Shown piece by piece: positions 644 to 47,419 of a DNA stretch of 64,000 nucleotides. The notes beneath the pieces were generated by a model, which was not told where the DNA came from, searched no databases, and saw only the letters and a program-made list of their open reading frames with translations. Source of the DNA: Escherichia phage vB_EcoM_EC001. Position 1 is the stretch's first letter, and each line of letters starts with the position of its first letter. The stretch lies in the sequence record MN445185.1; one strand, given 5' to 3'. The position numbers and the translations under genes were made by a program.

Positions 644-2748
644 TGGCGGGTCGTTCTGTACACGTGCGTGATTTGCGTATGCTTAACTCTGATCAGGTGT
701 GGAAACTACGCGGGCGTTATTACGTGACATTCGACGATGGTAAGTCGTTGGAAATGTCTAGTCGCCACATCAAACTCAGCTGGCCGTATTGGGGTGTGTC
801 GCGTCTGTATCCGCAGGTGCCCACTCCATCGACCATGGCGTATCGTCCAGGTCAGGTAGCAACAGATGACCTGCATCTGGACTTTATGTCGGAAGCAGCG
901 GTACTGGCCCGTAAAGCAGGTGTCGACCTTGCTGAAACGCGTTATATCCTGAGTCAACATGTCTACGCCGATGCGTTCAACATGACAGTGAAGAACCTGC
1001 TGTCCTATTGCACGACAATCGACTTTGATACGATGATGGAGATCTACGACCATCCGAACTTCGAACTCATCCGTCAGTGGGAAGTGCAATATCCTACTGG
1101 CTACGATGAAGATGGTCGGGATATGGTTGAAGAAGCGTACAAGCTTATCGAGAAAATCTTCAAAGACCCTGCGCTACGGTATAACCCGGTCGTGATGTCG
1201 GTACTGGATGGTACTGTGAAGATGAACCAGGTACTGCAAGCCTTCGTGCGTGGTAAAACGTCAGAAATTGACTCACGTGTATACACCAATCAGGTGTGGG
1301 AAGGCTTCTTTACCGGAATGCATTCGGTTATTTCGCGTTTGAAAGAATCTGGTGCAACTTCACGTTCCCACTTGTACAACACTGACAAGATTGCCGAAGC
1401 AGAATACGCCTCACGTAAACTGCAGCTGGCAGCAAACGTACTGATGTATTTCACGTACGACGACTGCGGTACAACTCACGCACACCGCTACACGTTTAAG
1501 GATACGCAGCTGGATGAGCGTGCCTATAAAGCGATGGTGGGGATGCGTTATCGTTTAGAAGGTGATAATGGTCCGTGGTTGAGATTTGAGAAAGGTGGAT
1601 ACGCAGACCTGGTTGGCAAACCGCTGGTCTTCCGTAGTGCCATGACCTGTAAAGAGATGGCGAATCAGTCCATCTGTGCGACCTGTATGGGGGATTTGAT
1701 TTATAACCTCTCTGAAGGTACGTCACCAGGTCATCTGGCATCCACGTCCATCTCGGAAAAGGGTACACAGGGAATTCTCTCTACCAAGCACCTTGACTTC
1801 TTGCGTTATCTGCTCAACCTGGTACTCACCCCACGTATGCGTGAGTATATGACCGAATACAAACATAACTCTCTGAAAGGGTTGTGCTTGCTGCCAAAAC
1901 CACAGCGTGGGAATTGGTCAGAATACGAGTTGGTTGTTACCGACAAAGTTTATTCGGAGCTGAGCCAGATTGCGTATCATGAAGATCTCGATGCAATTGA
2001 TGAAACGGCATTACCAGAAATCACCGACTTAACTTTCCAACGTCGTTTAGAAGATGGGCAGATAATCGCTGCGGATTCTATCGATGTGCGAATGGGTGTT
2101 TGTGGGAACTTCTCTAAACCGTTCCTGCACTACTTCTTGAAACAACGAGCGAACATTCGTATCGAGAAGAAGACGGTTCAGATTCCTTTGAAAGGATGGA
2201 ACCCGAAACACCCGGTCCTGGTCTACACCAACCGTTCTGAATCGATGGCGGAGTTCGTAGCCGGCTTAGAAACCAAGCTCCGTTCGATTGCTGCCGATAA
2301 GAACGAAGACATTGTGGAAATCATCAACACAGCCTCGACTGTGAAGCTGAACAAGAAACAAGGTCGTGTGAAACCGGTGACGTTGGTTGAAATGGGTGGT
2401 GCTACAGAGAAACAGTGTACTTATGCGTTGATGGACACGTTTAAGTATATCCAGCGTAAGCTGAGTGGTATACCGATGACGCACATTGCGATTATGTTGG
2501 CGATATCTCGTGTAGAGTCGCCAACCAATCCGTTCCCGGCAGTAGGATTTGACAGTGAGGATTCTACTAATGCCACCGGGAAACGGTTTGTCGATCACAA
2601 CACGCTCATTAGTTTGCGCTCGGCAATTCCGATGTTGTTGTTTGAAGGACAGCAGGGGAATATCGATCGCGTTGGTTTTTATACCGAGTACAAAATCCCG
2701 GCATCGTTGTACGATGACCTAGGAGCCGCTGTGGTAATTGAGTTGTAA
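643..2748 (+). CDS. hypothetical protein (701 aa)
   Basis: Long ORF, GGAGGA SD at 631-636, translationally coupled to upstream ORF, followed by intrinsic terminator; no motif recognised. Confidence 0.8.
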   Translation: MAGRSVHVRDLRMLNSDQVWKLRGRYYVTFDDGKSLEMSSRHIKLSWPYWGVSRLYPQVPTPSTMAYRPGQVATDDLHLDFMSEAAVLARKAGVDLAETRYILSQHVYADAFNMTVKNLLSYCTTIDFDTMMEIYDHPNFELIRQWEVQYPTGYDEDGRDMVEEAYKLIEKIFKDPALRYNPVVMSVLDGTVKMNQVLQAFVRGKTSEIDSRVYTNQVWEGFFTGMHSVISRLKESGATSRSHLYNTDKIAEAEYASRKLQLAANVLMYFTYDDCGTTHAHRYTFKDTQLDERAYKAMVGMRYRLEGDNGPWLRFEKGGYADLVGKPLVFRSAMTCKEMANQSICATCMGDLIYNLSEGTSPGHLASTSISEKGTQGILSTKHLDFLRYLLNLVLTPRMREYMTEYKHNSLKGLCLLPKPQRGNWSEYELVVTDKVYSELSQIAYHEDLDAIDETALPEITDLTFQRRLEDGQIIAADSIDVRMGVCGNFSKPFLHYFLKQRANIRIEKKTVQIPLKGWNPKHPVLVYTNRSESMAEFVAGLETKLRSIAADKNEDIVEIINTASTVKLNKKQGRVKPVTLVEMGGATEKQCTYALMDTFKYIQRKLSGIPMTHIAIMLAISRVESPTNPFPAVGFDSEDSTNATGKRFVDHNTLISLRSAIPMLLFEGQQGNIDRVGFYTEYKIPASLYDDLGAAVVIEL

Positions 2749-2751
2749 ACC

Positions 2752-2777
2752 GAGGGGCCTTGCGCCCCTCTTTTTTT
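2752..2777 (+). terminator. rho-independent terminator
   Basis: GC stem GAGGGGC/GCCCCTC followed by T7 run, directly after stop 2746-2748. Confidence 0.8.
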
Positions 2778-2794
2778 GTGCGAAGAGGGGCAGC

Positions 2795-5539
2795 ATGGTA
2801 GAAATTCAAATGACTTACACGAGTATGGGGGTACGGGTTGAAGTCCCTATCCGCCAGGCTGAAAGGGCCATACTCGCGTGGGCCGAAGAGAATATGCACG
2901 CCCCAAAGATGGGCAAGCAACATGGACGAATAACTACGGAACGCGGTGACGCGTACTACGCCCACATTCCGTCTTTAAGGACGTTCATTTTCCATAAAGT
3001 GTTCGCTGAGAAGATTAAACATATCCTCCAACGAGCAGCAATTGAATATGCTTTTCAGTACAAGCTTACAGAGCACCATCCTGAGCGAGGAACACCTTAC
3101 TGCTGTACATTTGATAACTACGGCTTCTCGATGGTAGAAAGCGATCCGGAGTCGCGTTTCTACTATCAGAACGAGGTTGTGGATGCAGCGTCCGATCCAA
3201 ACCGACCACAGACAATCTTTGCCATTCAGACAGGGAGAGGAAAATGCTGTGCTCATGGTACGCGTGTGCGTGTACCGGGTGGTTGGAAGAACATTGAGGA
3301 TATACAGCTAGGTGATTACGTTACGGGGCGTGACGGAAAACCAGCAATGGTCTCTGGAGTGTTCCCACAGGGTGTGGTTGACCTGTATCAGGTGACGTTT
3401 TGGGATGGTAGGAGTGTTGACGTATGTGGCGAGCACTTGTGGCAAAGCTACTACGTTAATACCACCGAGAATCGTCGCTGGGGTGTACGTGATACCCTAG
3501 AGATGAAACGTTTAATTTCGATGCCTAATCCACGGGTATACATCCCATTACCAGAACCAGAGGAAATGCCAGCTAAGGATTTTGTCATTCATCCGTATTT
3601 ACTCGGTATCCTCTTGGGTGATGGCTCCCTATCGATGCCTGGTGTTTTATACACCAAAGGCGATGTGGAGATTCGTGACCGTGTTGCTGAGGTCATGCCC
3701 GCTGGACATGCAATCCATGATTCATCGTACAGCGATGGGATAACGAAGTGCATCTCTTGTCCCGGCGGTGTTAACCTTGTCCGCAGAGAGCTTGAGCGGT
3801 TAGGGTTAATTGGCTGCAGGTCTTGGGAAAAGTTCATACCTGGAGATTACTTCGAAACGTCCATCGAACAACGGTGGGAGTTGTTGCGTGGCTTGATGGA
3901 TACTGACGGTACTGTGGATAAGGATGGTGGTACGCCTTCTTTCTGTTCCACCAGTAAAGAATTGGCTTTAGGTGTTCAGGAACTTGTGCGGTCTTTAGGA
4001 GGGATTGCAACACTACGCGAGAAACGTCCGTTCTTCACACACAACGGCGAACGTCGTGAAGGTCGTTTGGCTTATAACGTCTCCATCCGCCACAAAACAC
4101 CATCGAAACTGTTCCACCTTCCAAGGAAGAAAGAACTGTGTCGTGATAACGGACAATACACCGATATACTGAAACTCCGTGTTAAGTCTATCGAACCCAT
4201 TGGTCGTGATCTTGCCACGTGTATTCGTGTCGAGAACGACGATGCGTTGTTTGTGGTGGACAAGTGGATCGTTACGCACAACACCAAGACCTGTATGAAG
4301 TCGATGGTTAAACGGGGAACCCGTACCGCATTGATTCACCGTCCGTCGTACGTTCCCAAATGGCTGTTTGACGTCTGTGATGATGAAACAGGACTTCGTA
4401 TACTTCGTGACGAGGTGTTAGTTTGTACAGGCGTACAGGCGATTTACGACGCGCTGGAGATGGGTAAGTCGGGAGAGCTAGATAGTCGTGGTATTAAGGT
4501 AATAATCCTCCCCACGGTCTCTCTACAGCGTTTCCTGAAGGAGTACATTAACACTGCTGCGACTAACCCTGTGGACCTGGATACGTTTTATGATGTTCTG
4601 GGTGTGGGTCTGGTGGCGATGGATGAGGTGCACGAGCATTTTCACCTCGTTTACATGGCTGGTATAATGTTGAACCCTCCGGCATCGATAGAGATGTCTG
4701 CAACCCTTAAGCCGGGTAGCAGTAAAGCCTTTATCGCGGAGCGGTATTTAGAACGTTTCCCAATGGAGTACCGAATCAGTATTCCAATCATTCCGGTGGT
4801 TGACGTGAAGGCGTTGTACTATCGACTGGATGATAAGAAGTTTGCGTGGTGGGCGTCGAAGATGACGCCGTATAACCACAAGCTCTTCGAAGGGAAGCTG
4901 ATTAAAGAGAACTTGCATTTAGAATACGCGAACATGATCTGGGATGTGGTTGAGAAATCGTTCCTTAAACGGTATCAACCTGGCCAAAAATGTTTGATAC
5001 TCTTTGCTACGGTAGCGATGTGTGAGTTCTTTACCGAGTATGTGAAAGATAAGTTATCGCGTGACCCTGTATTCCATCCGTTGATGGTGGCGAAATATAA
5101 TGCAGGCGATTCGTATGACGACTTTATCCAAGCAGACTTCTCTATCTCCACACCGGGGAAAGCGGGGACTGCGGTCGATAAACCTGGGTTGGTACACATG
5201 TACATTTCAACCCCGGTAGAAGACCAGCAACTGAACGAACAGATGGCCGGTCGTCCACGTAAGATTCTCCACAACGAATGGGGTGAAATAGACCCAACGG
5301 TGTGGTTATTCCATGCGTATAACGTACCGAAGCATTGCAATTACCTGAATGCCCGCCAGAAATCACTCAAGGATGTCGTATTGTCGTTCCGTATCGCGAC
5401 ATCCCCCTACGTTGTAAGGAAATCACATGCTCACTCCGCCGCGTCCAGCAGAGCCGCTGCCACCCTACATCGGAATGACTTTAGCAAGTTTTCTCGAAAA
5501 CGTTCTAAAGGCGTATCCCGGCGTAGAAGACGTCGCTAA
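2795..5539 (+). CDS. SF2 DExH-box helicase interrupted by an intein (914 codons, about 568 aa after splicing)
   Basis: Motif I AIQTGRGK|T restored after intein removal, motif II VAMDEVHE, motif III MSATL, motif VI QMAGRPRK; ATG 2795 with GAGGGG SD; the track start 2738 is a TTG inside the upstream gene. Confidence 0.75.
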   Translation: MVEIQMTYTSMGVRVEVPIRQAERAILAWAEENMHAPKMGKQHGRITTERGDAYYAHIPSLRTFIFHKVFAEKIKHILQRAAIEYAFQYKLTEHHPERGTPYCCTFDNYGFSMVESDPESRFYYQNEVVDAASDPNRPQTIFAIQTGRGKCCAHGTRVRVPGGWKNIEDIQLGDYVTGRDGKPAMVSGVFPQGVVDLYQVTFWDGRSVDVCGEHLWQSYYVNTTENRRWGVRDTLEMKRLISMPNPRVYIPLPEPEEMPAKDFVIHPYLLGILLGDGSLSMPGVLYTKGDVEIRDRVAEVMPAGHAIHDSSYSDGITKCISCPGGVNLVRRELERLGLIGCRSWEKFIPGDYFETSIEQRWELLRGLMDTDGTVDKDGGTPSFCSTSKELALGVQELVRSLGGIATLREKRPFFTHNGERREGRLAYNVSIRHKTPSKLFHLPRKKELCRDNGQYTDILKLRVKSIEPIGRDLATCIRVENDDALFVVDKWIVTHNTKTCMKSMVKRGTRTALIHRPSYVPKWLFDVCDDETGLRILRDEVLVCTGVQAIYDALEMGKSGELDSRGIKVIILPTVSLQRFLKEYINTAATNPVDLDTFYDVLGVGLVAMDEVHEHFHLVYMAGIMLNPPASIEMSATLKPGSSKAFIAERYLERFPMEYRISIPIIPVVDVKALYYRLDDKKFAWWASKMTPYNHKLFEGKLIKENLHLEYANMIWDVVEKSFLKRYQPGQKCLILFATVAMCEFFTEYVKDKLSRDPVFHPLMVAKYNAGDSYDDFIQADFSISTPGKAGTAVDKPGLVHMYISTPVEDQQLNEQMAGRPRKILHNEWGEIDPTVWLFHAYNVPKHCNYLNARQKSLKDVVLSFRIATSPYVVRKSHAHSAASSRAAATLHRNDFSKFSRKRSKGVSRRRRRR
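3245..4282 (+). mobile_element. intein with LAGLIDADG homing-endonuclease domain (346 aa)
   Basis: In-frame insert begins with Cys right after GRGK, ends VTHN followed by Thr; two LAGLIDADG-type motifs LLGILLGDGSL and LLRGLMDTDGTV. Confidence 0.75.
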
Positions 5540-6491: not shown

Positions 6492-8454
6492 GATCCAAGA
6501 TCAGCGTCCGGGTAATGCCCGTCGCCCTAATCCCGACCAGCCAGCCCCTGTGGCGGCTGCTACCCAACAAGAGATGATTCTTCCGACCGTGCCTGATGAC
6601 GCGACCTCGGATGCAATCATCATGGCTATTAAACAAGCCAATCCCGATTTTTCTTTTGCCCGTGCAGAAGAAGTTTATCACCAACACTATCATCGTCCGG
6701 AGCCTAAGCTTGAGCGTCCGACGTTTGTAGAAGAGGCGTTGCCTGAACCTGCTGCACCTGTACCACCGGCACCTCAGACTTTTGCTGAACAGGTGCAGGA
6801 GCACCTACATCGTGCCCCGGAACCGGTAGTAGAGAAAGCGCCTACGGTAGAACCTGCTCCGCAGCCAAAAGCTCCGGAAGCGGTTGCACCGGCACAGCCG
6901 GCTGTAAAAGAAATGGAAGATGCAGCACCGAAGGTTCCGGAACAACAACAGATGCGTGAGATTGACTTCGGTAATACCCATTTAGCTGAAACCGCCGAAA
7001 TGGGTGAAGATGAAGCCGATCGTATTCTGACACAGTCGAAGATGTTGATTGGTCTGAAACAAGACCCTAACATCATTGCAGACTCCCTGCAAAAGTTCCT
7101 CGGTAATATTAAACGTTCACCGAAAGACGGCCGGCTGCTATTCGAAAGCCCTGAACAGCAACAGGTTTACGACGACATCTATCGTGCTTTGAACATGACC
7201 CCGCCACGTCTACAGGACGGCGTACCGGCATTCGCGGGTGCACTGGACCGTGGTGATACCGCTTGGGAACAGCGTGTGATGTTGCCGGACGGCAAGGCAT
7301 CTGGTGCTATTGCACCGCGTGACAATATGCACACTGGCGCGCTGGCTGCCTTACGTCGTGTACGTAAGTCGGGTATTCCGAACATGGTTTGGTTGCCGGC
7401 CACAGGTATCTACGTGGGCTTCCGCGCACCGCACGAACGTGACCTTTGTGACTTCGACATGCGTCTAACGCTGGAAACTGCGACCATCGGTATGCAGACC
7501 TACGGATTGATGCTGTCGTCGTCTTCTGGCGTGTACATGCGCCACATGGTTGAATTCGCACTTCAGTTTGTTACCGAAGCAACCATCGATTGTGCGGGTA
7601 ACGATCTGCGTACGGTGCTGTTGGATACCATTGATCTGGCTGACTACTGGCTGGTTATTCTGGGTCCGTTGCAGGCGAAGTGGCCGTCTGGTATTCCATG
7701 GACGCTGATGTGTGGCGAAGACGGTTGCAACCAGCAGGAAGATGTGAAGCTGAACATCGCGCGTTGTATCCGTTTCGGTTCCGGACTGTTTAGCGACCTG
7801 CAGAAACAACTGTGGGCACGTCAACGCGGTACTGAGCGTCCAGTGATTTCTATTGCAGAACAGCGCGAATATATCGCGGCGCATCAGGTTGATCCGTCCT
7901 CGGTATTTGAATACCACGACGTGCGTGTTGAATTTGGCCGTTCCACCCTGGGTAGCTTCTTTGACTCCACCGAGAAGTGGATTGAAGACGTTAACGCGTC
8001 AACTACGGCAGCGCTGTCTGAATTTGCTACCGAGCGTGAACGTGAATCCCATATGCGTTTAACTGCGGAAGCCCGTCGCTTAACGCGTTACGCTCACATG
8101 GTGAAGTCTATCACTGTTAATGAGCAACGTGAAGTAAACGGTGAAATGCAGGTTATCCCACAAACTGAAACCGACACAGCGAAAATCGTTGAGATGCTGG
8201 AAGAGCTGTCTTCCGACCGTATCTACGTTGGTCAGTTTGAAAACGCGATTGCTGAATACAACGAACGTACACGTTTAGCGGTATTCGGTTACATGGGTAA
8301 ACGCTGCCCGGCGTGTGGTAAAACACACGGCGAGAAAGACGGTCTGTATCGCGGTATTGTTACCATCAGTCCGGACAGGGTTTTTTTCGTGCTCTCTCGA
8401 GTGGTGTCCGAGATTCAGAAATTCTTGCTGGATCAATACGCCGATATTGGCTAG
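6484..8454 (+). CDS. hypothetical protein with Pro/Ala-rich N-terminal low-complexity region (656 aa)
   Basis: Long ORF, start overlaps upstream stop (ATGTCTGA); C-terminal CPACGK motif. Confidence 0.8.
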   Translation: MSEIQDQRPGNARRPNPDQPAPVAAATQQEMILPTVPDDATSDAIIMAIKQANPDFSFARAEEVYHQHYHRPEPKLERPTFVEEALPEPAAPVPPAPQTFAEQVQEHLHRAPEPVVEKAPTVEPAPQPKAPEAVAPAQPAVKEMEDAAPKVPEQQQMREIDFGNTHLAETAEMGEDEADRILTQSKMLIGLKQDPNIIADSLQKFLGNIKRSPKDGRLLFESPEQQQVYDDIYRALNMTPPRLQDGVPAFAGALDRGDTAWEQRVMLPDGKASGAIAPRDNMHTGALAALRRVRKSGIPNMVWLPATGIYVGFRAPHERDLCDFDMRLTLETATIGMQTYGLMLSSSSGVYMRHMVEFALQFVTEATIDCAGNDLRTVLLDTIDLADYWLVILGPLQAKWPSGIPWTLMCGEDGCNQQEDVKLNIARCIRFGSGLFSDLQKQLWARQRGTERPVISIAEQREYIAAHQVDPSSVFEYHDVRVEFGRSTLGSFFDSTEKWIEDVNASTTAALSEFATERERESHMRLTAEARRLTRYAHMVKSITVNEQREVNGEMQVIPQTETDTAKIVEMLEELSSDRIYVGQFENAIAEYNERTRLAVFGYMGKRCPACGKTHGEKDGLYRGIVTISPDRVFFVLSRVVSEIQKFLLDQYADIG

Positions 8455-8498
8455 ACCAGGAAGACGTTCCGTCCGAGCAAATCATTACAACGCTCAAG

Positions 8499-8870
8499 AT
8501 GGATACCACCTCTCTCTTCAAGCAGCGTAGCACACGTCCTATTACGTATCAGGAAGCCCATAACGAGCTTCTGGAAGCGTATGACCGTACACTGGCTCTT
8601 AATACCGGCGACCATCAGGTAGGGTTGTCGGATTTTGAAAACCCGGTATACGGTAGTCTTTACGATATCTGGTACGCCACTTACTTACGTGAAGAGGTCG
8701 GTGAAAACTACCGGATGTCGATAGACGAGTTCCTCGACCGTCCCCGCTGGCAGATACTGCTGATGCTCGACAATATCCGTCGTCGCAAAGCGATTATCGC
8801 CAAAGCCGGCGAACAGGTGGCAGGTGAACGTGCGCTAAAGGAGCTGGAGAAAGATCTGACGGGACATTAA
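8499..8870 (+). CDS. hypothetical protein (123 aa)
   Basis: ORF followed by strong terminator; weak SD. Confidence 0.65.
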   Translation: MDTTSLFKQRSTRPITYQEAHNELLEAYDRTLALNTGDHQVGLSDFENPVYGSLYDIWYATYLREEVGENYRMSIDEFLDRPRWQILLMLDNIRRRKAIIAKAGEQVAGERALKELEKDLTGH

Positions 8871-13508: not shown

Positions 13509-14861
13509 ATGGGACACTGGCAAAAGCACATAACCTCGTTGGCCGACGCGAAAGCCGTGGCCTCGGAATCCATCGGATTCCAAGATAAAAAGAAACTCGC
13601 CTCTTTGGCGGAAGTGGTACGTAAGTTCCGTGATGCGGGCGACTTCTCGCCAGCGGGTTATCAGAGTTCTGGTATTGCTGCCTGGGTCTTTGACAACAAC
13701 GGTATTACAGTCCTGCCTCGTAACGGGTCCGACTTAGGTGTGGCGGACGTTGTGTTTGCGGGTGTGGAGCCGCCGAAGCTCGACGCGAACAACCCAATCA
13801 TCGCCGACCTGCAACGCAAGATGGTGCAGGGTAACATCGACCTGGATGTCTACAGTAAGTTCTTAAAAGAGAACGAGCTGAACGGCGAGTTCGACGATAA
13901 AAATGCGAAGCTTTCAGGCGAACTCAGCAAGGTGCCGTCCCCACTTTGGCTGACCCCGAAACTACTGACCGGTATCGAGTTAACGGATTTAGAAGTCGCG
14001 GCGATAATTCTGCATGAAGTCGGCCACGTCTATTACTATTTCCGTACCTTGATGCGTACGGTGGTAACGAACCTGATTGCGGATGCTGCAGCGAACCGCA
14101 TGATGCAAACCGAAGACCCGACAGTGCGTTTAAAAGTCGTAAAAGACGTTGAACGTATGCTGAACACCAAAGTGAATCAGCCGGAAACTATCTGCAAAGA
14201 GATGTCTAAAGAGAACATCTACATGCATCTGGTGACAGACATTCTGCTTGAGCGTCCGTTTGTTACCGGTTCGGAAGGGTTCGCTAACCGTACCTGGGAA
14301 CGTGCTGCGGATGACTTCGCAGCTCGCTTTGGTGCAGCCCCGTACCTGGCGTCAGCCTTGTACAAAATCGAAACGTCCCAATTCTATCTCTGCCGGAACG
14401 CGTCGTACATGAACTACGGTGTGCATCTGATGCTGGAAATGCTTAACGTTTCGCTGCTGATTGTGGCTTCGACTAATCCAGTTGGCCTGTTCTTCACGAC
14501 TATCTCGGTGGCGTTCGGTCTGATTGTGAACGACCCACGCAACACCATCTACGATCCGCCGCAGGAACGTTTTGAGACGATGCGTCGTAACTTAGTGGAG
14601 GAGCTGAACACCTTAAAAGGCAGCACCACGAAAGAAGCGAACGAACACCGTAAACGTATTCTGCAGGGCATTGCGTCTATCGACGAATTACTGAAAACCG
14701 TGAAAGACAAAGACAACGTCTTTAGCTTCATCATGAAAACGCTGACCCCTGGCGGTCGCCGTGAGCGTGCTGGGGTGGATTATCAGCGTACGATGGAGCG
14801 CTATCTTTCTAATGACCTGCGTGTGGCTTCTGCGAAGCTTAGTCAGGCGACTTCTTCCTAA
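13509..14861 (+). CDS. putative zinc metallopeptidase-like protein (HExxH motif) (450 aa)
   Basis: AAIILHEVGHVYYYF contains HEVGH in a hydrophobic context; AAAGGA SD. Confidence 0.65.
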   Translation: MGHWQKHITSLADAKAVASESIGFQDKKKLASLAEVVRKFRDAGDFSPAGYQSSGIAAWVFDNNGITVLPRNGSDLGVADVVFAGVEPPKLDANNPIIADLQRKMVQGNIDLDVYSKFLKENELNGEFDDKNAKLSGELSKVPSPLWLTPKLLTGIELTDLEVAAIILHEVGHVYYYFRTLMRTVVTNLIADAAANRMMQTEDPTVRLKVVKDVERMLNTKVNQPETICKEMSKENIYMHLVTDILLERPFVTGSEGFANRTWERAADDFAARFGAAPYLASALYKIETSQFYLCRNASYMNYGVHLMLEMLNVSLLIVASTNPVGLFFTTISVAFGLIVNDPRNTIYDPPQERFETMRRNLVEELNTLKGSTTKEANEHRKRILQGIASIDELLKTVKDKDNVFSFIMKTLTPGGRRERAGVDYQRTMERYLSNDLRVASAKLSQATSS

Positions 14862-14876
14862 GTAAGGGTACTTAAC

Positions 14877-15320
14877 ATGACGCATAAAGTTTCTTTAAAT
14901 AACCTGGTACTGGATTTCAAACGTACCAACGAAGGGAAAGGTGTACACGCCCAGCGTGCTTTGACCGGCCTGGTTGCTTTCTCACTGGCGTATAACGCGG
15001 TACTGGCTGATAATGGTCAATATGGCGCTGCAGAGGCCGCTGGGACGTTTTTACGTCCGGTAATGCGTAATATCGTCTCTGACGTTAACGAGCTGTACTG
15101 TGTTGATTTGGGCGTGATTGAGGACATGACCGTGGGTCTGTACTGCAATCGTTACTGCAACGTGTATGGCGGCGCTAAAGCTCTGGAAAGTTTCTCAGTT
15201 CGTGAGATTTTCAACCAGGCACTCGGGGAAGATATCTGGGAAACCGTTGGTCTGTGGATTAGCCGCTTTATGGAAGTGGTTGGTTTCTACATGGCAGAAC
15301 TGAAAGGGCAAATTTCATGA
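14877..15320 (+). CDS. hypothetical protein (147 aa)
   Basis: TAAGGG SD; downstream gene start overlaps its stop (ATGA). Confidence 0.65.
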   Translation: MTHKVSLNNLVLDFKRTNEGKGVHAQRALTGLVAFSLAYNAVLADNGQYGAAEAAGTFLRPVMRNIVSDVNELYCVDLGVIEDMTVGLYCNRYCNVYGGAKALESFSVREIFNQALGEDIWETVGLWISRFMEVVGFYMAELKGQIS

Positions 15321-17050
15321 GCATGGAAATGACAGGTAACGCCACCCACCCCAAATGGCGTTTGGGGGAGATCGGTGAAGTCCTGCGTTCACGTATGGCC
15401 GAGCGTATTGATTCTGTCAACCAGCTCAATCTGTACATGCAACGCAACGAAGCCGACCTAATCTACGGCTCTCGACTGATTCTGCAAATTGACGCGATTC
15501 TTGACGAAGTGCGTCGCGCAGGTCTGTCGAAAGATGTCGCTGTCGCTGTTGAATCTTCTCGCCCAGGTACAATTCCCGAAGCCGTTCGCAAAATCCTGAC
15601 TTCGAACTATACCCGCACGCACCAGAAAGAGACTATTGTTGCGCTCGAATCCTGGGCAAATGCAGGTAAAGTGGGATTGGTTGTGCTGATCATGACCGCG
15701 ATTATCAAAATCATCGGTTGGATTATCAGCAACGGTAACGGGTTTGCTGGTAATGGCGAATTCGATGGCGAAGGTTACGCTGAGAAAGTCGGCGAAAAAG
15801 CAGAGAGTTTCTCCCAGACCGAAAATACTATCATCGGTCAGCTGAAAATCAGCGCAGTGAAAGATGCATACATCGAAGCCTCTAAGGGTCTGAAAGGTCG
15901 TGACCTGGAAAACCTGAACTTGGCTATCGCGATGGCCGACGAAGTGTTTACGAACATGAACGCGGAAGAGTATCTGAACGACTTGAGCAGCGCGCTGGGT
16001 CGTTCGCCGTTCACTGAGTTGTTCAAAGGTTACACTAAGAAACGTCAGTCAAGCCAGCAGGTTATTCACGATCTGTTAGATACCCTGTTACAACACAACG
16101 TGACGTACGGTATCTACCCGATTGAAGTGGGTAAGAAAGCCTGGCAGGCGTTACCGAAGTCTGCTCGCGAAGCCGGTGTGCGTATTCCGAACCTGTTGAA
16201 CTTCCATCAGATGTCGAATGTTGCCAGCGAACTTATCGGTTACTTTGGCTCGCTCCAGAGTGCCTTTAAAGCGATGATTGACCCAAGCGTCGCCGAAGGT
16301 TTTAAGAATCAGCAAGGTTCAACCACCACGCACAACGGTAAGCAGGTTAACAAAGCAGCACACGACACCGCGCTTATTTTCGGTCAGGCGTTAGCGCAGC
16401 TGAACACCACGATGAACTTCATCATCAGCGACGTTTCCCGCAAAGGATTCGAATACGCCACTGCACCTTTGGTCGTTATCCCAGAAAACAAAGTTCGTGG
16501 TTTAGTGGGTTATGATGATGGTGTGGACTTCGTGCCTGGTAAGGTATTGGTCAACGCACAAGCATCTGCGTTCTTGGGACGCGAGTGCTTAGAGCAAATG
16601 CGCCAGGCAGGCACGTTATCGGTTGGTGACGAACGTGAGTTGCTGGCTGTAGTGGTAACGTTAGGTAAACAAGGCTTTACCAACGACACCGCTGCGACTA
16701 ACCTGAATCGTTACAGTGCGCTGGATAAGGCGGTTAACAACACGATTAAAGTGTTGGAGCAGTTCCAGAAAGCAACCAAGGATAACGTTGAATACGTTAA
16801 CCTGATTAGCGAAGTCATCATGAATGAGCTTAATCAGCCTTCTGGCCTGCGTACCGATGGTCGTGAACTCTCGATGGTGTTATTCTCCCCAGACGGGGAT
16901 GAAGACCTCTTCGTCGGCTTGCGACGTAACCTGTCGTTGGTGCGTCGTTGTTGCAGTGCTGCCGCTACATTGCAGACGATACTGAACCTGGCCAAACGTA
17001 ACCCGTTGGTGAAAGGCAATAATCGCAAAAACATGCTTGACGGCGAATAA
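15317..17050 (+). CDS. hypothetical protein with one predicted TM helix (577 aa)
   Basis: Long ORF, ATGA overlap with upstream gene; hydrophobic segment VGLVVLIMTAIIKIIGWII. Confidence 0.75.
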   Translation: MSMEMTGNATHPKWRLGEIGEVLRSRMAERIDSVNQLNLYMQRNEADLIYGSRLILQIDAILDEVRRAGLSKDVAVAVESSRPGTIPEAVRKILTSNYTRTHQKETIVALESWANAGKVGLVVLIMTAIIKIIGWIISNGNGFAGNGEFDGEGYAEKVGEKAESFSQTENTIIGQLKISAVKDAYIEASKGLKGRDLENLNLAIAMADEVFTNMNAEEYLNDLSSALGRSPFTELFKGYTKKRQSSQQVIHDLLDTLLQHNVTYGIYPIEVGKKAWQALPKSAREAGVRIPNLLNFHQMSNVASELIGYFGSLQSAFKAMIDPSVAEGFKNQQGSTTTHNGKQVNKAAHDTALIFGQALAQLNTTMNFIISDVSRKGFEYATAPLVVIPENKVRGLVGYDDGVDFVPGKVLVNAQASAFLGRECLEQMRQAGTLSVGDERELLAVVVTLGKQGFTNDTAATNLNRYSALDKAVNNTIKVLEQFQKATKDNVEYVNLISEVIMNELNQPSGLRTDGRELSMVLFSPDGDEDLFVGLRRNLSLVRRCCSAAATLQTILNLAKRNPLVKGNNRKNMLDGE

Positions 17051-25315: not shown

Positions 25316-25355
25316 TCCGCTTTACGTACCAAACGTCGGTTGACAAATCATTAAT

Positions 25356-25376
25356 GGCGGTACACGGCGTACCGCC
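25356..25376 (+). other. intergenic hairpin between the paralogs (GGCGGTAC/GTACCGCC, loop ACGGC)
   Basis: Read directly; no U-tract, so not a canonical terminator. Confidence 0.5.
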
Positions 25377-25392
25377 TAGAGGATAGAAAAAG

Positions 25393-25437
25393 ATGGCAAA
25401 CTTTGTAAAAAGTAAACTCGCTCGTGAATCTGTCGAA
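25393..25437 (+). repeat. direct repeat, copy 2
   Basis: See copy 1. Confidence 0.8.
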
Positions 25438-26652
25438 GGCGCAGGCACTGTCGTTCCAGATGGTATCGAGCTGCCGGCTGAGTCCGTGGAAGGTACTCTG
25501 GCTGACATCGAGCATGACACCAAACCGATCGACCAGCTGGACGCAGAAGCAGACGTGCTGGCAGAAGACGGTGACGAAACTGATGCACAGCTGGATGCAG
25601 TTGATGCTGCTGAAGCTGCCGCTGACGGTGAAGGTGAAGATGGCGAAGAGCCAATGGAAGTGGAAGAAGATATGCCTGACGATGCTGCTGAGCAGCTGGA
25701 CGTTGCGCAGGAATCTATCCGTAAACGTTGGGCATTCGACCACCGCGTAAGCGTTGCGCAGGAATCTTACGGTGCACGTAAGCGTCGTCAGGTTGCTCGT
25801 GAAAGCCTGTGGGAAGATATCAAAGCCTTCCTGAAGCGCATCTACGAGTGGCTGAAAGAGCAGGGCCGTAAAATCAAAGATCGCTGGCTCAAGTTCAGCA
25901 ACCAGGGTAAATCCATTCAGGCGCGTGCTAAGAAATATGACGCTGCGCTGTCTGGCCTGGGCAAGCAGAAGAAAGACACCGTTTCCGGTGGCTTCATCAA
26001 GAACCTGACCTCTAACGGCAAGTTCCTGGGTGACAACCTGCAGGTGCTGAAAGAGCTGCTGGCTAACATCGGTGGCGTTTACAGCATGCAAGAAGACGTC
26101 GTTCGTGAAGCAACTGTAATGGTAACTTCTATTGAGTCTGGCAAACACGTTGGCGGTTTCGCTGCAGCGGTTAATAAAGCAGTTTCTGGTAAGTCCGGCG
26201 ATCTGCAGCTGCTGGGCAACCAGATCGGTAAAGCTGACGTTAAAGTCAACGGTGACGACCTGGAAGCATCCTTCACTGTTATCGATGCAGAAGGCAGCGT
26301 AGAGCAGTCCGTAGCGACTCCTTCTCTGACCACCCTGAGTGGTCTGGTGGCGTTCTTCAATCAGCTGGGTAAAGCTGTGGAAGAAAACGTGAAAGCGTAC
26401 CACAAGAACAACCAGGCGCAAGAGAAGTACGAGCAGGCTATTGACAAGCTGCTGAAGCGTATCGACAGCGTGAAGATCGACGACAACGCCGAGCTGACCA
26501 ACAACGTACGTGTTGCTCGCCGTGCTATCACCATCGCGAACCAGTTCGTTTCCTGGACCGAACGTTGCGTTGCAACTGGCCAGAAAAACCTGATCGCCGG
26601 TGTTAACGGCTACATCAGCGCCGGTATCGGTGCTTATGAAAAGGCTAAGTAA
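25393..26652 (+). CDS. abundant virion protein candidate, paralog B (419 aa)
   Basis: Same N-terminus MANFVKSKLARESVE, shared VAQESIRKRW and C-terminal GYIxAGIGAYEK; AGAGGA SD. Confidence 0.8.
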   Translation: MANFVKSKLARESVEGAGTVVPDGIELPAESVEGTLADIEHDTKPIDQLDAEADVLAEDGDETDAQLDAVDAAEAAADGEGEDGEEPMEVEEDMPDDAAEQLDVAQESIRKRWAFDHRVSVAQESYGARKRRQVARESLWEDIKAFLKRIYEWLKEQGRKIKDRWLKFSNQGKSIQARAKKYDAALSGLGKQKKDTVSGGFIKNLTSNGKFLGDNLQVLKELLANIGGVYSMQEDVVREATVMVTSIESGKHVGGFAAAVNKAVSGKSGDLQLLGNQIGKADVKVNGDDLEASFTVIDAEGSVEQSVATPSLTTLSGLVAFFNQLGKAVEENVKAYHKNNQAQEKYEQAIDKLLKRIDSVKIDDNAELTNNVRVARRAITIANQFVSWTERCVATGQKNLIAGVNGYISAGIGAYEKAK

Positions 26653-39752: not shown

Positions 39753-40277
39753 ATGCAAATTCGTTTTAGTCCACCGTGGGAAGTTCAATCTAACATAGAT
39801 AAAGGGGCTGGCGTTAAAAAGTTGGAGGAACTCCAAGCAAGCTTCTTTAACTGGTTATATGACTGCTCGTCGGGCTTTAGTTCCATCATACTGCCAGTGA
39901 GTGACCCTATTTCGATTTATAAATCGATTATGGCACCACCTGCACTTCCGACTCTTTATTATGACCAGGTCTTAAACCTGGTTGAGAAAGGTACGAATGA
40001 AACCCTTGCTGATTTATATGGGGAATCATTCGACGGTCGTTTACGTTGGGTGTTCTCACAACGTGGCGATGTTGTTGTGGCGTCTTTTGCAGAAGCTAAA
40101 TCCGGACCGGGTTTTTCTTTAAGTGAAGACCACGCTGCGAAAAAGATGTTCTGCGCAGAACTTTTTAAATATATGCGTCCCAAGACTCGTGTCGTGGATG
40201 ATACGTTCAGTACGTCGACGCAGTTTGCTGCGCACGAAGTGCTGACGCAGTTGTACGCATGTCATTTATCTAAATAA
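39753..40277 (+). CDS. hypothetical protein (174 aa)
   Basis: ATG 39753 is 14 bp from the divergent minus-strand start; the track start 39699 overlaps that gene. Confidence 0.65.
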   Translation: MQIRFSPPWEVQSNIDKGAGVKKLEELQASFFNWLYDCSSGFSSIILPVSDPISIYKSIMAPPALPTLYYDQVLNLVEKGTNETLADLYGESFDGRLRWVFSQRGDVVVASFAEAKSGPGFSLSEDHAAKKMFCAELFKYMRPKTRVVDDTFSTSTQFAAHEVLTQLYACHLSK

Positions 40278-40289
40278 GGTAAACTTGAA

Positions 40290-42590
40290 ATGAAAGATAC
40301 CCGTATCGCTAGTCTGGACCAGCTGGTTCAGCAGGGCAATGCTCTGGTCGCTGCTGCCAAGGCAGGCTCTTCCGCTAATGACGTATGGCAAACCGTAGCC
40401 GTTGGCGAATCTGTACGTAAAAATGCTGCCGGCTTCACCAACCTGCGTGACACTGCTCAGCAGCACTACGAAGCTGTAAACCCTGGCAAAACCATGAGCC
40501 ACGCTGCTCAGGTTGCTTCTGCGATGATTCTGGCTGCTGCCGGTCACGAAGACGACTTCATGACCCGTGTTGCTGCCGAGAGCGCGAAGCCGGAATACGC
40601 CAGCTACATGCCGATCGCTATTTCTGGTGCAGCATCTCTGGCTGCTGACTACGGTAAAACTCCGCTGGTCGCAACTGAATACTACACCAACAAAGACCTG
40701 GACAAAAACCTGGGTCTGACCTGGACGCTGAACGTGCGTGCTCTGGAAACTCAATCCAAGTTTGCAGAAACCCTGTTCCCGACCATCACTGTGGACACCA
40801 ACGACGTCGGCATCACCGTTCGTACCAAAGTTACTACTGTATCTCGTGGTATCCTGAACGCCCTGCTGACCAAAGACGTGGTTGAAGACAACCGTCAGCC
40901 GCTGCATAACGCGCTGTCTAACCACAAAGTCCTGCAGGACGATGCTATCCGTATCGTACCTTACGTGATGGAAACCGGTGAGAACGCGAAGTTCTTCGTA
41001 TCCGAAGACATCATCGAAAACGAAAACGTTCAGCTGGGTCGTGTGCCGGCGTATCCGACCAACTACCTGAGCTTCTCTGAACGTCGTCTGAACCTGTTCC
41101 AGCTGTCTGCCCATCCGGGTATCGTGCAGGAAGGTTACGATGAAACCGACGAAATCGCACCGGGTGCAGCGCTGGGTAGCCTGCTGCTGTCTGTGCGTAA
41201 GCCGACTGAAGAAGCGAAAGATGGCGCGCTGATCAAACTGAACGTACGCGACATGCAGTTCGCTACCTTCCAGCGTCCTCCTGAAGGTGATGGCCGTGAG
41301 CTGGTCCTGCAGTTCCGTCGCACTGTGTTCTCCCTGAACGCCAAGTCTCTGGACTGGAAAGGTGCTGAAATCCCGGCACTGGCCGCTCTGGCACAGAACG
41401 ATTACACCATTCGTTATTCCATGAACATCAGCATGTCTCTGTTCACCAACGGTCAGTTCTCTGGTCGTGTTGACGTGACTGCACCGTCTCTGGAAATCGA
41501 AGGTCTGTACGACGCAACTGGTACTGCTGTTGATATCGAAAGCGGCACCGGTAAAGTTATCATCGACAACCTGAAACTGGAGCTGCTGGGCTGGCGCTTC
41601 GACGGTACTCGTACCAACGAGAACCGGAGAACCCAGGGCCTTCTGCTCGACCCGATTTGGGAACAAGAGAACTACAAACTGCAGTACGGTTCTCCGATCA
41701 TGACCAAATCTCCGGTTGGCGTTGAATACGACGACACCGAACGTCTGGACGACCTCGTTTCTGCGGTTAACATCCGTAACGAAATGCTGGCTATCACTCA
41801 GACTCTGTCTTACACCGAAGCGGTTAAGAACGCAGCTGCGTCCATGATCACTCCGTGGGACAAACCTGCTATCCGCGGCCTGGGCCGTCACTGGGTTGCT
41901 CCGTGGTACAGCGAAAGCGACTACGAAGTGGACAAAGTGATCCAGTCTCTGGATACCAAAGATGCGCTCATCAACGCCCGTCAGGGTCTGGTACAGCGTA
42001 TCGGCGACCAGGTAACTCGTGCTATCCAGGATTCTCGTTTCATGCCGGCTCTGCGCCTGCTGACTGCGGACCCGAACGCACTGCCGAAAGTTGTTATCGC
42101 AACTGACGAACCGACTGCTGCAATGCTGCTGCTGGTTCAGGGTGACCAGCGTCTGCTGGGCGATCGCTACGAGTACGAAGTTATCACCACCAACGATGAC
42201 CGCTGGCGTGTGAAGAACGAAGCTGACGGCAGCTGGACTCGCCGCCTGCAGTGGGTTCTGAAAGTTCCAACCGCTGATGACGGTTCTTACTGTGTTCTGA
42301 ACTGGGGTAACCACTTCTGGTCTCCGATCATGGTAACCAACATCAACATCCAGCGTAACGGCGCTACCAGCAAAGAGCTGGCAGTACAGCCTCGTAACGC
42401 GCACATCTGCCACTGCCCGATCACTGGTCTGATCTGGATTAAAGGTATCACCAAGTTCGTGGAAGAGAAACTGGCGTTCAACGTCACTACTACTTCCAAC
42501 GGTACTGGCGGTACTAATGGCGGTAATGCGGGTGATGTTGGCGGCGGCGCTACCCAGCCAGGTACTGGCGGTGAAGGCGCTGGCGGCTAA
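40290..42590 (+). CDS. abundant virion structural protein, candidate major capsid protein (766 aa)
   Basis: Strongest codon bias in the window; size typical of jumbo-phage capsid proteins; Gly-rich C-terminal tail; strong terminator downstream. Confidence 0.6.
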   Translation: MKDTRIASLDQLVQQGNALVAAAKAGSSANDVWQTVAVGESVRKNAAGFTNLRDTAQQHYEAVNPGKTMSHAAQVASAMILAAAGHEDDFMTRVAAESAKPEYASYMPIAISGAASLAADYGKTPLVATEYYTNKDLDKNLGLTWTLNVRALETQSKFAETLFPTITVDTNDVGITVRTKVTTVSRGILNALLTKDVVEDNRQPLHNALSNHKVLQDDAIRIVPYVMETGENAKFFVSEDIIENENVQLGRVPAYPTNYLSFSERRLNLFQLSAHPGIVQEGYDETDEIAPGAALGSLLLSVRKPTEEAKDGALIKLNVRDMQFATFQRPPEGDGRELVLQFRRTVFSLNAKSLDWKGAEIPALAALAQNDYTIRYSMNISMSLFTNGQFSGRVDVTAPSLEIEGLYDATGTAVDIESGTGKVIIDNLKLELLGWRFDGTRTNENRRTQGLLLDPIWEQENYKLQYGSPIMTKSPVGVEYDDTERLDDLVSAVNIRNEMLAITQTLSYTEAVKNAAASMITPWDKPAIRGLGRHWVAPWYSESDYEVDKVIQSLDTKDALINARQGLVQRIGDQVTRAIQDSRFMPALRLLTADPNALPKVVIATDEPTAAMLLLVQGDQRLLGDRYEYEVITTNDDRWRVKNEADGSWTRRLQWVLKVPTADDGSYCVLNWGNHFWSPIMVTNINIQRNGATSKELAVQPRNAHICHCPITGLIWIKGITKFVEEKLAFNVTTTSNGTGGTNGGNAGDVGGGATQPGTGGEGAGG

Positions 42591-45748: not shown

Positions 45749-47419
45749 ATGAGCATTACTGTTGAACAAATCAAAAACGTCATCGTTAAACACCTCGATC
45801 AGGACGCGGTACTGTCGCAGCTGAATAATGTGATGCGCAGCCGTAGCATTCCGCCAGATCAGGCGTTAAAGATTGCGACGTATGTTGCGGCATGGGCAGC
45901 ATCCAAAGGGGGTAGTGAAGCACAGGTTATCGCATATGCGGTCGATGCGTATAAAGCAGCTGCCTATCAGCAGGTGCATAACGCAGGCGACGCGTATAAC
46001 GACGATCGTCACACCAAACTGGTTAATGCTTGGGAACAAGTCGGTAAGATTCTTGCCGAAATTCGTTCTCAGCAGTCTGGCGGTTTGGGTGGCAGTGGTG
46101 GTTTAGGTGGTGGTAGCAACGCAGGTGGGTTACTGGGCGGTAACAGTTCTGGCGGTGTTCGTGTTACTGATGGCCTGACCATGTCTTCTGCGCCATCTGG
46201 TGGTGTTAAGATTGGTAACACAGATGCGGCACTAACCGTGATTGCTGGCGGTGAAGGTCTTAACCTGGTCAATGATCCTATTCTGAACCCACAACCGGCG
46301 CAAGTAGCCCCAGCACAACAGCCCCGGCCTGAACCAGCACCGGTGCCTGTACAACCAATGCCGGTGTCTAATGCTACAGTTAATAACCCAGTGCTTTCCC
46401 CACTCGGCGCAACAGAAGAAACCGAGAAGGACACTATCAATGGCCCAATTAACAACATTCTGCAGGAGATTGATTTGATGGAAGACTACGCACTTCACGA
46501 GCTGAAAACCCCCGAGCTTAAAATGTCGATTCCAGCGAAGGAAGCTAACAGTCGCATTAAGCAATCTGTTTACGCGGAAACTCGTGATTGGGCTACACCG
46601 TTGCAAGATATCTTTAACGGTAATGAAGAGGTTGTTTTCTACGACGGGGCTGACCTGATTGTGCGTGCACGTGATAGCTATCGCGCGTATCTGGTCGGTG
46701 TTAACACTGACATGTGCGAACGCATGAAACAATTCGTTGCTAAGCACGATGCGCTGAAATCCGATCTCGACAACCTGGCACTGGTAGAAGATGTTGAAAC
46801 TATCATGGCTAAGGTGAAGCGTACGATCGATGAACTGCGTAAGAACACGAAAGAACTGCACGAATATGCGATTGCGAACAGCAGCGAAGCAGAAGTGGTT
46901 ATCAGTGAAATTTCTCGCTTTGCTAATGCGTACCTGGCGAATATCACTTTCCTGGTACACAACGCGCTGTCGCTGGGCACTAAGCGTGGTAAAGATGTGC
47001 CGAAGTTCAAAGCTATCGATTTCGAACGGAAAATCAGCGATATTGATTTCTTCGTAAAAGATCTGTTCACAGCAACCGCTGGCGACAACGGTGTAAGTGA
47101 ATATGAAGACTGGTTCCGTGACCTGTTCCTGATGGTAGCAAACTCTCTGCGCAAACTGACTATCAAGCTGAGCGATTCTGGCAAGGTGGTTAATCTGATT
47201 CAGAGCCAGTTCACCATCGTGATTCCAGGCATGTACCATTCTGTTGATAAACACGACGTAGTTACGGTAGCGTCTCTGGGCAATACCGCAGACCCAGTTG
47301 TGTCTATCTACGAAGCAGTACAGGAAAACGTGCCACATGCAATTGTGTTAATGCAGCTGCCGCAGCGCACCTACCTGCTTCTGAGCAATGGTGAGAAAAC
47401 TGCACCAGTGTTGTACTAA
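45749..47419 (+). CDS. hypothetical protein with Gly-rich and Pro-rich linker segments (556 aa)
   Basis: CTTAAGGAGTATT SD context; followed by terminator. Confidence 0.8.
   Translation: MSITVEQIKNVIVKHLDQDAVLSQLNNVMRSRSIPPDQALKIATYVAAWAASKGGSEAQVIAYAVDAYKAAAYQQVHNAGDAYNDDRHTKLVNAWEQVGKILAEIRSQQSGGLGGSGGLGGGSNAGGLLGGNSSGGVRVTDGLTMSSAPSGGVKIGNTDAALTVIAGGEGLNLVNDPILNPQPAQVAPAQQPRPEPAPVPVQPMPVSNATVNNPVLSPLGATEETEKDTINGPINNILQEIDLMEDYALHELKTPELKMSIPAKEANSRIKQSVYAETRDWATPLQDIFNGNEEVVFYDGADLIVRARDSYRAYLVGVNTDMCERMKQFVAKHDALKSDLDNLALVEDVETIMAKVKRTIDELRKNTKELHEYAIANSSEAEVVISEISRFANAYLANITFLVHNALSLGTKRGKDVPKFKAIDFERKISDIDFFVKDLFTATAGDNGVSEYEDWFRDLFLMVANSLRKLTIKLSDSGKVVNLIQSQFTIVIPGMYHSVDKHDVVTVASLGNTADPVVSIYEAVQENVPHAIVLMQLPQRTYLLLSNGEKTAPVLY

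Follow-up and report, generated by a model that had tools for sequence, protein, structure and literature searches.

The window analysed here is a stretch of 64,000 nucleotides (nt) from Escherichia phage vB_EcoM_EC001 (MN445185.1), and the gene in question is an open reading frame (ORF) on its + strand whose product is predicted to be a very diverged zinc metallopeptidase. The ORF starts with ATG, encodes 450 amino acids (aa) and, stop codon included, fills 13509-14861 exactly, as had been given in a preliminary description made from the letters of the window. The DNA of the window is 98-99% identical to that of the Salmonella jumbo phage SPN3US and its relatives, and we assign the window to an SPN3US-like jumbo phage. 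The ORF product shares 99.8% aa identity with SPN3US_0045 (gp45, "putative virion structural protein 1"), is matched to PHROG 2767 (E = 9e-167; PHROGs category "unknown function") and finds phiKZ gp84 by BLASTP with E = 1e-21. We identify it from these matches as SPN3US gp45, a homologue of phiKZ gp84; the ORF and SPN3US gp45 are the same gene with the same neighbours, and phiKZ gp84 is annotated as "structural head protein".

Upstream of gp45 lies a DNA polymerase gene on the opposite strand, and downstream a gene of ~147 aa followed by a larger head-protein gene, an order common to SPN3US, phiKZ, PCH45 and Goslar. [quoted passage not shown] The preliminary description had placed the ORF in a replication/early region, a label that has to be given up: since its product is a head protein verified by mass spectrometry (PMC10052503 Table 2), gp45 is a virion gene adjoining replication genes and not an early or replication gene.

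The HExxH motif and its conservation

A zincin-like reading of this ORF had been proposed from an HExxH motif, which we confirm as HEVGH at residues 169-173 (nt 14013-14027, + strand). It belongs to the active-site helix segment AAIILHEVGHVYYYF (residues 164-178; 13998-14042, + strand) and lies within a helix predicted to span residues 160-199. The caveat attached to that proposal, that it rested on the motif, was well placed, as the bare motif is no more than chance would give. From the frequencies of H and E in the window ORFs of at least 150 aa (25,473 residues), 0.83 occurrences of HExxH are expected by chance, and two were found. The second, VHEHFH, occurs in a helicase-like 933-aa ORF (2738-5539, + strand) which matches PHROG families of DNA helicase, primase and terminase-type ATPase, and it is evidently fortuitous. 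A bare HExxH is not diagnostic, because about 0.8 are expected by chance and a fortuitous one is indeed present; the HEVGH of gp45 is considered non-random because it is conserved across the family.

This family is large. Homologues of gp45 were found by tblastn in 197 phage records, and among the matches listed all were jumbo phages, infecting Erwinia, Pseudomonas, Serratia, Ralstonia, Vibrio, Klebsiella, Burkholderia and Escherichia. A word-indexed search returned close relatives only. A 13-sequence profile searched against 1.84 billion cluster representatives (clusters at 50% identity) retrieved 2,488 proteins at E <= 1e-3, of which 1,005 reached E <= 1e-30. With few exceptions the proteins retrieved are 410-450 aa long and matched over their full length. 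Every phiKZ-like (Chimalliviridae) phage that was checked has the gene, and so do other jumbo phages. A transposon screen of phiKZ recorded 0 filtered insertions for PHIKZ084 in 1242 bp (PMC12676376 supplement), a count to be read with the caution of the same study that polar effects occur, orf85-86 being likewise without insertions and yet deletable.

In an alignment of 147 sequences with a mean column identity of 26%, only eight columns are invariant, namely E20, H169, E170, G172, H173, E264, D268 and R354, while Y348 and D349 are at least 90% conserved. An independent check found H169, E170, G172 and H173 in 152 of 152 aligned family members. The preliminary description had made its reading depend on homologues conserving HExxH, and the motif proves to be invariant in 147-152 of them. 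The same holds for ten distant homologues from GenBank (phiKZ gp84, Goslar gp067, those of PCH45, RSL2, RAY and a marine phage, and those of Vibrio, Serratia and Klebsiella phages), all of which keep HExGH and carry Exx(A/S)D 94-96 residues after it; YDxxxxR is kept in most of the ten, with variants in phiKZ gp84 and Moabite. The invariant positions would thus correspond almost exactly to a zincin catalytic set plus the cleavage site of the prohead protease.

In the records of Salmonella phages SPFM1-SPFM20 (P0028-P0034), the gp45 homologues vary in length from 275 to 445 aa. They score highly with HMMER, yet BLASTP aligns no more than 4-5% of the query in its best segment, and the DNA match ends at nt 1331 of 1353, which suggests that the length differences are frameshifts or sequencing errors in the records and not real variation.

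Relationship to the M48 peptidases

Peptidase_M48 (PF01435) is the sole Pfam family match of gp45 and falls below the gathering threshold, with 17.7 bits where 20.3 are required (E = 0.0034). All 13 close homologues gave the same sub-threshold match (best E = 4.5e-4), and a Pfam search with the phiKZ, Goslar and PCH45 homologues gave no match. The NCBIfam HtpX model left only a trace, 12.8 bits against a cut-off of 422. The profile search that the preliminary description had called for was more informative, as the 147-sequence profile matches human ZMPSTE24 with E = 3.3e-5. The alignment consists of two segments in order. The first, ending in EiAAIiLHEvGHv, falls on EEVLAVLGHELGHW (HELGH) of ZMPSTE24, and the second, RswEqlADqFAarhGaGrdLataLdKl, places E264 of gp45 on E415, the third zinc ligand. 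As an internal control, the chain of the ZMPSTE24 E336A mutant scored 6 bits lower with the family profile.

The glutamate helix motif so defined, by the ZMPSTE24 alignment and by invariance, is NRTWERAADDFAARFGAAPYLASALYK (14286-14366, + strand), with E264 encoded at 14298-14300 and D268 at 14310-14312. Its NRTWERAAD, which contains E264, also aligns with the ERQAD of a Pfam-positive cellular M48 protein. We predict that H169 and H173 are zinc ligands, E264 the third ligand and E170 the general base. In agreement with this, hhalign against E. coli HtpX, BepA, LoiP and YcaL gave a probability of 91.4% and E = 9e-7 over only 36 columns, spanning the edge strand and the HExxH helix; in a relaxed alignment, HExxH and ExxAD stay collinear.

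A pattern-limited scan of 185,579 genomes, one per species, with the 13-sequence alignment returned two loci, a cellular M48 protein of Desulfotignum and a jumbo-phage-like contig binned in a metagenome-assembled genome (MAG). The former is a 607-aa protein encoded at 3333-5156 (+ strand) of the Desulfotignum MAG contig JBFLKI010000196.1 (L017). It has a highly hydrophobic N-terminal half, apparently with several membrane spans, an M48 domain (Pfam M48, 5e-14) and C-terminal tetratricopeptide (TPR) repeats. Residues 148-287 of gp45 match it by BLASTP with 30% identity over 141 residues (E = 7e-7), a segment that includes both motifs, and across the catalytic core (ELAAVILHETGHV) it is unusually close to the phage family. 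It may point to the lineage of cellular proteins that gave rise to the phage enzyme. The segment between the two motifs is strongly hydrophobic in the Desulfotignum protein, whereas in gp45 it is made of helices that lie outside the sole strongly hydrophobic stretch.

A further conserved motif of gp45, YDPPQER (14550-14570, + strand), contains the invariant R354 together with Y348 and D349. The pattern H..P....R is common to the E. coli M48 paralogues, and Y348-D349-x-P-x-x-R354 has an equal spacing from Tyr or His to Arg. The two were paired only in a non-significant alternative hhalign alignment. It is possible that YDPPQER is the counterpart of the C-terminal HPxxxxR of M48 with Tyr in place of His, and such a swap of the transition-state-stabilising residue would be chemically plausible. 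In other zincins, Tyr is a standard transition-state-stabilising residue.

These results support the earlier zincin-like metallopeptidase reading, on the strength of an invariant motif, its ExxAD partner and significant M48 profile matches, and we predict gp45 to be a very diverged M48-type (gluzincin) metallopeptidase. Its closest known enzymes are those of M48 (Ste24/ZMPSTE24, HtpX, BepA, LoiP, YcaL and Oma1) and the minigluzincins (proabylysin). It differs from them in several respects. The segment from HExxH to the Glu helix consists of soluble helices in gp45, where HtpX-type enzymes have two transmembrane helices, and unlike in HtpX-type M48 a hydrophobic hairpin follows the Glu helix. 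The motif YDxPxxR stands against the C-terminal HPxxxxR of M48, and gp45 adds an alpha/beta region at its N-terminus and a long helical one at its C-terminus, which have no match in the PDB. Unlike known M48 enzymes, it is packaged in a capsid and processed at its N-terminus by a viral serine protease.

Predicted structure and the hydrophobic hairpin

AlphaFold2 (AF2) modelled gp45 with a mean predicted local distance difference test score (pLDDT) of 73 when given 13 sequences, and with a pLDDT of 91.4 and a predicted template modelling score (pTM) of 0.91 when given 147. In the model, residues 1-24 form a disordered propeptide (block means of pLDDT ~50-54 for residues 1-20), followed by a helical and beta region with strands at 68-71, 84-86, 126-129, 134-137 and 144-148. 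The long active-site helix (160-199) is followed by three short helices, the Glu helix (256-273) and a helix at 277-290. The C-terminal part comprises a hydrophobic helix-turn-helix (303-320/324-340), the YDPP motif and four long helices. Foldseek found no significant match for either AF2 model, and the remaining top structural matches are generic long helices of similar Z. Our reading of the model is that the catalytic core would be M48- or minigluzincin-like within an overall architecture that has no solved counterpart.

The hydrophobic helical hairpin, YGVHLMLEMLNVSLLIVASTNPVGLFFTTISVAFGLIV (residues 303-340; 14415-14528, + strand), was delimited by Kyte-Doolittle hydropathy and the AF2 model, and is the sole stretch of gp45 with a 19-residue Kyte-Doolittle mean above 1.2. 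Its hydrophobicity is kept across the 147 homologues (median best 17-residue mean 2.24) as its sequence drifts, and only 10 of the 147 have another comparably hydrophobic window. Conserved hydrophobicity with a drifting sequence is typical of lipid-facing helices and also fits a buried core; the hairpin is a candidate for either a membrane-insertion element or a buried core.

Head location and processing

Mass spectrometry has found gp45 in SPN3US virions and purified heads, where it is listed as "Head, unknown function" (PMC10052503 Table 2), and has detected its cleavage at ASE-20 in every replicate, in virions as well as heads (PMC10052503 Table 2; PMC5694885). By these published data, the 20-residue propeptide MGHWQKHITSLADAKAVASE (13509-13568, + strand) is removed by the prohead protease gp245 after E20. 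The ORF of the window reads KAVASE|SIGFQ at this junction, ASE being residues 18-20, and E20, the published cleavage position, is invariant in the 147 homologues.

Among the processed head proteins of SPN3US, only gp45 has a propeptide that matches the T4 capsid-targeting sequences in length (PMC5694885). In T4, IPI-III and Alt likewise carry a short N-terminal propeptide of ~10-20 aa, which the prohead protease gp21 cuts after Glu (PMC5694885). The T4 internal proteins and gp45 are also likened by their location inside the capsid; there is no sequence relationship between them, and the chemistry of gp45 is that of a metallopeptidase. T4 Alt is an ADP-ribosyltransferase, that is, enzymatic cargo delivered with the DNA. 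By analogy with the T4 capsid-targeting sequences, the gp245 cut after E20 would be a hallmark of proteins targeted to the capsid interior. Likening gp45 to ejected T4 cargo goes one step further, since ejection of gp45/gp84 is something we infer: the validated injected proteins of PMC10449902 do not include gp84, which its main text does not mention. In the phiKZ capsid map, gp84 is not among the ordered shell proteins (PMC11297242), and this absence is compatible with an internal location.

Nine of the 150 relatives listed are much longer than the rest. Two types of N-terminal extension recur, of ~400 aa or ~800 aa, the latter weakly similar to the gp47 family. In the metagenomic proteins P0056, P0088 and P0122 (~800-840 aa), P0066, P0090 and P0128 (~1200 aa) and P0160 (1452 aa), the M48-like domain is C-terminal; P0116 and P0175 have C-terminal extensions instead. 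All seven N-terminally extended fusions keep the junction xxE|(S/A)-(I/V)-x-(F/H), usually then Q. Since this junction is kept in every one of them, the prohead protease probably releases the M48-like domain from a polyprotein, and the conserved feature would be the cleavage rather than a particular 20-residue leader.

Neighbouring genes

Two co-oriented genes follow gp45. The first, gp46 (14877-15320, + strand; 147 aa), is matched to PHROG 8529 and corresponds in position to phiKZ gp85, which belongs to the inner-capsid vertex-binding complex (PMC11297242). The second, gp47 (15317-17050, + strand; 577 aa), starts with a 4-nt overlap of the gp46 stop, and is an essential head protein cleaved by gp245 (PMC10052503 Table 2; PMC5694885). 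The two occupy in the window (14877-17050) the positions of phiKZ gp85/gp86 (6921-8646 of the phiKZ locus, L002), which are components of the vertex-binding complex, and gp46 and gp85 are of similar size (147 versus 149 aa). Sequence homology of the two pairs was considered and rejected, as pairwise BLASTP found no similarity, and they are positional counterparts only. Judged by these comparisons, gp46/gp47 and gp85/gp86 have diverged past pairwise detection, unlike the adjacent M48-like gene.

The longest ORF of gp47 starts at the ATG at 15317 (MSMEMTGN), the overlap with the gp46 stop being ATGA. This is four codons upstream of the start annotated for SPN3US in GenBank JN641803 (equivalent to 15329 of the window) and agrees with the start-site revision made by mass spectrometry in PMC5694885 and PMC10052503. 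Elsewhere in the window, three long ORFs are antisense shadows of genes and are probably non-coding. The longest (715 aa; 40266-42413, - strand) overlaps the gene for the major head protein (PHROG 3231; 40290-42590, + strand), and the others are at 25351-26421 (- strand; 356 aa), opposite 25393-26652 (+ strand), and at 46232-47338 (- strand; 368 aa), opposite 45749-47419 (+ strand).

Proposed role of gp45

Because gp45 has a published head location and ASE-20 cleavage, an invariant gluzincin set and homology to M48, it is very probably an active M48-like zinc metallopeptidase packaged in the head. Our full proposal, which we regard as fairly probable, is that it is a capsid-carried, diverged M48-type peptidase which is ejected, associates with a membrane through its hairpin and cleaves host or co-ejected proteins. 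The protein is made with its 20-residue propeptide, which the prohead serine protease gp245 cuts off after E20 as the head matures. Zinc would be held by H169, H173 and E264, with E170 acting as general base, and bound substrate would lie along the beta-strand (144-148) ahead of the active-site helix. Mature gp45 would leave the capsid with the DNA and other ejected head proteins, the hairpin 303-340 would let it associate with the host inner membrane or with the early-infection vesicle, and cleavage of host or co-ejected phage proteins would follow in the first minutes of infection.

The component of this proposal in which gp45 acts after ejection and in association with a membrane is put forward tentatively, as a reasonable possibility. 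It is favoured here because T4 marks its internal cargo, which is often ejected, with short cleavable targeting sequences at the N-terminus, because gp84 is not an ordered shell component, because cellular M48 enzymes work at or in membranes, and because such a setting would give the conserved hydrophobic hairpin a function.

The main alternative is that the enzyme works inside the capsid as a second maturation protease, degrading the propeptides and scaffold fragments of 111-254 residues released by gp245 and perhaps trimming internal proteins. Several M48 enzymes do act on peptides or unfolded chains. The presence of gp45 in proheads and heads, where it is itself activated or trimmed by gp245, fits such a role, as do its position in a conserved block with inner-capsid proteins and the fusion to head-protein-like domains in some metagenomic relatives. 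The long propeptides of phiKZ and 201phi2-1 are, moreover, reportedly cleared completely from heads (PMC5694885), which needs further degradation. However, published semi-tryptic analyses give A/S/G-x-E termini that were attributed to the serine protease only, and some SPN3US propeptide fragments persist in the head (PMC5694885). The conserved hydrophobic hairpin would also have no obvious purpose within a capsid, and we consider a role there rather unlikely.

It could also be supposed that gp45 is a pseudoprotease, a structural or scaffolding head protein with a zincin-derived fold whose conserved residues serve a structural metal or the stability of the fold. The literature lists it as a head protein and gives it no function, the family has diverged too far to reach the Pfam M48 threshold, and its third motif has Tyr where M48 has His. 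Against this, the general base or one of the ligands is usually lost in pseudoenzymes, whereas here, at a mean identity of 26%, all of 147-152 sequences keep H, E, H, E and D, which are nearly the sole invariant positions. The Tyr is no obstacle in view of its standard role in other zincins, and the ordered shell of the phiKZ capsid does not include gp84. This makes a pseudoprotease highly improbable. A peptidoglycan-degrading enzyme was set aside on the head location and the M48 chemistry, without a dedicated test. Finally, the reading that an unrelated helical protein carries HExxH by chance, for which the ~0.8 expected in the long ORFs and the fortuitous second one speak, is ruled out by the family-wide invariance of the motif, the collinear ExxAD at a fixed spacing and the significant profile and pairwise M48 matches.

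Significance

No paper in the experimental and review literature searched calls gp45 or gp84 a metalloprotease or reports zinc-dependent peptidase activity, and a literature search for M48 or metalloprotease with jumbo phages or Chimalliviridae found nothing relevant. Several GenBank records label gp45 homologues "beta-barrel assembly-enhancing protease", and that of Serratia phage Moabite labels its homologue M48. The gene itself and, in some database annotations, its M48 resemblance were therefore already known; what is new, modestly, is a functional assignment where the literature has "unknown function". The gain is incremental, since the M48 resemblance stands in some annotations and the activity is predicted.

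The assignment would add a metalloprotease to the enzymes known or predicted in jumbo-phage heads, which comprise a virion RNA polymerase, the prohead serine protease and a predicted helicase. A more far-reaching version, which we regard as doubtful, is that gp45 is an ejected, membrane-inserting effector whose proteolysis is needed to form or remodel the early phage infection (EPI) vesicle, or to release the genome to the nascent phage nucleus. The mechanism by which the EPI vesicle forms has been stated to be unknown (PMC12908238), and if this version were true, gp45 would be the first identified phage-encoded component of the vesicle membrane. With a concrete and mutable chemistry (ligands H169, H173 and E264; base E170), gp45 becomes a testable candidate for one of two open problems, namely the clearance of long propeptides from the heads of phiKZ-like phages, or the role that injected head proteins play as infection begins, within its first minutes, among other things in forming the membrane-bound early-infection vesicle.
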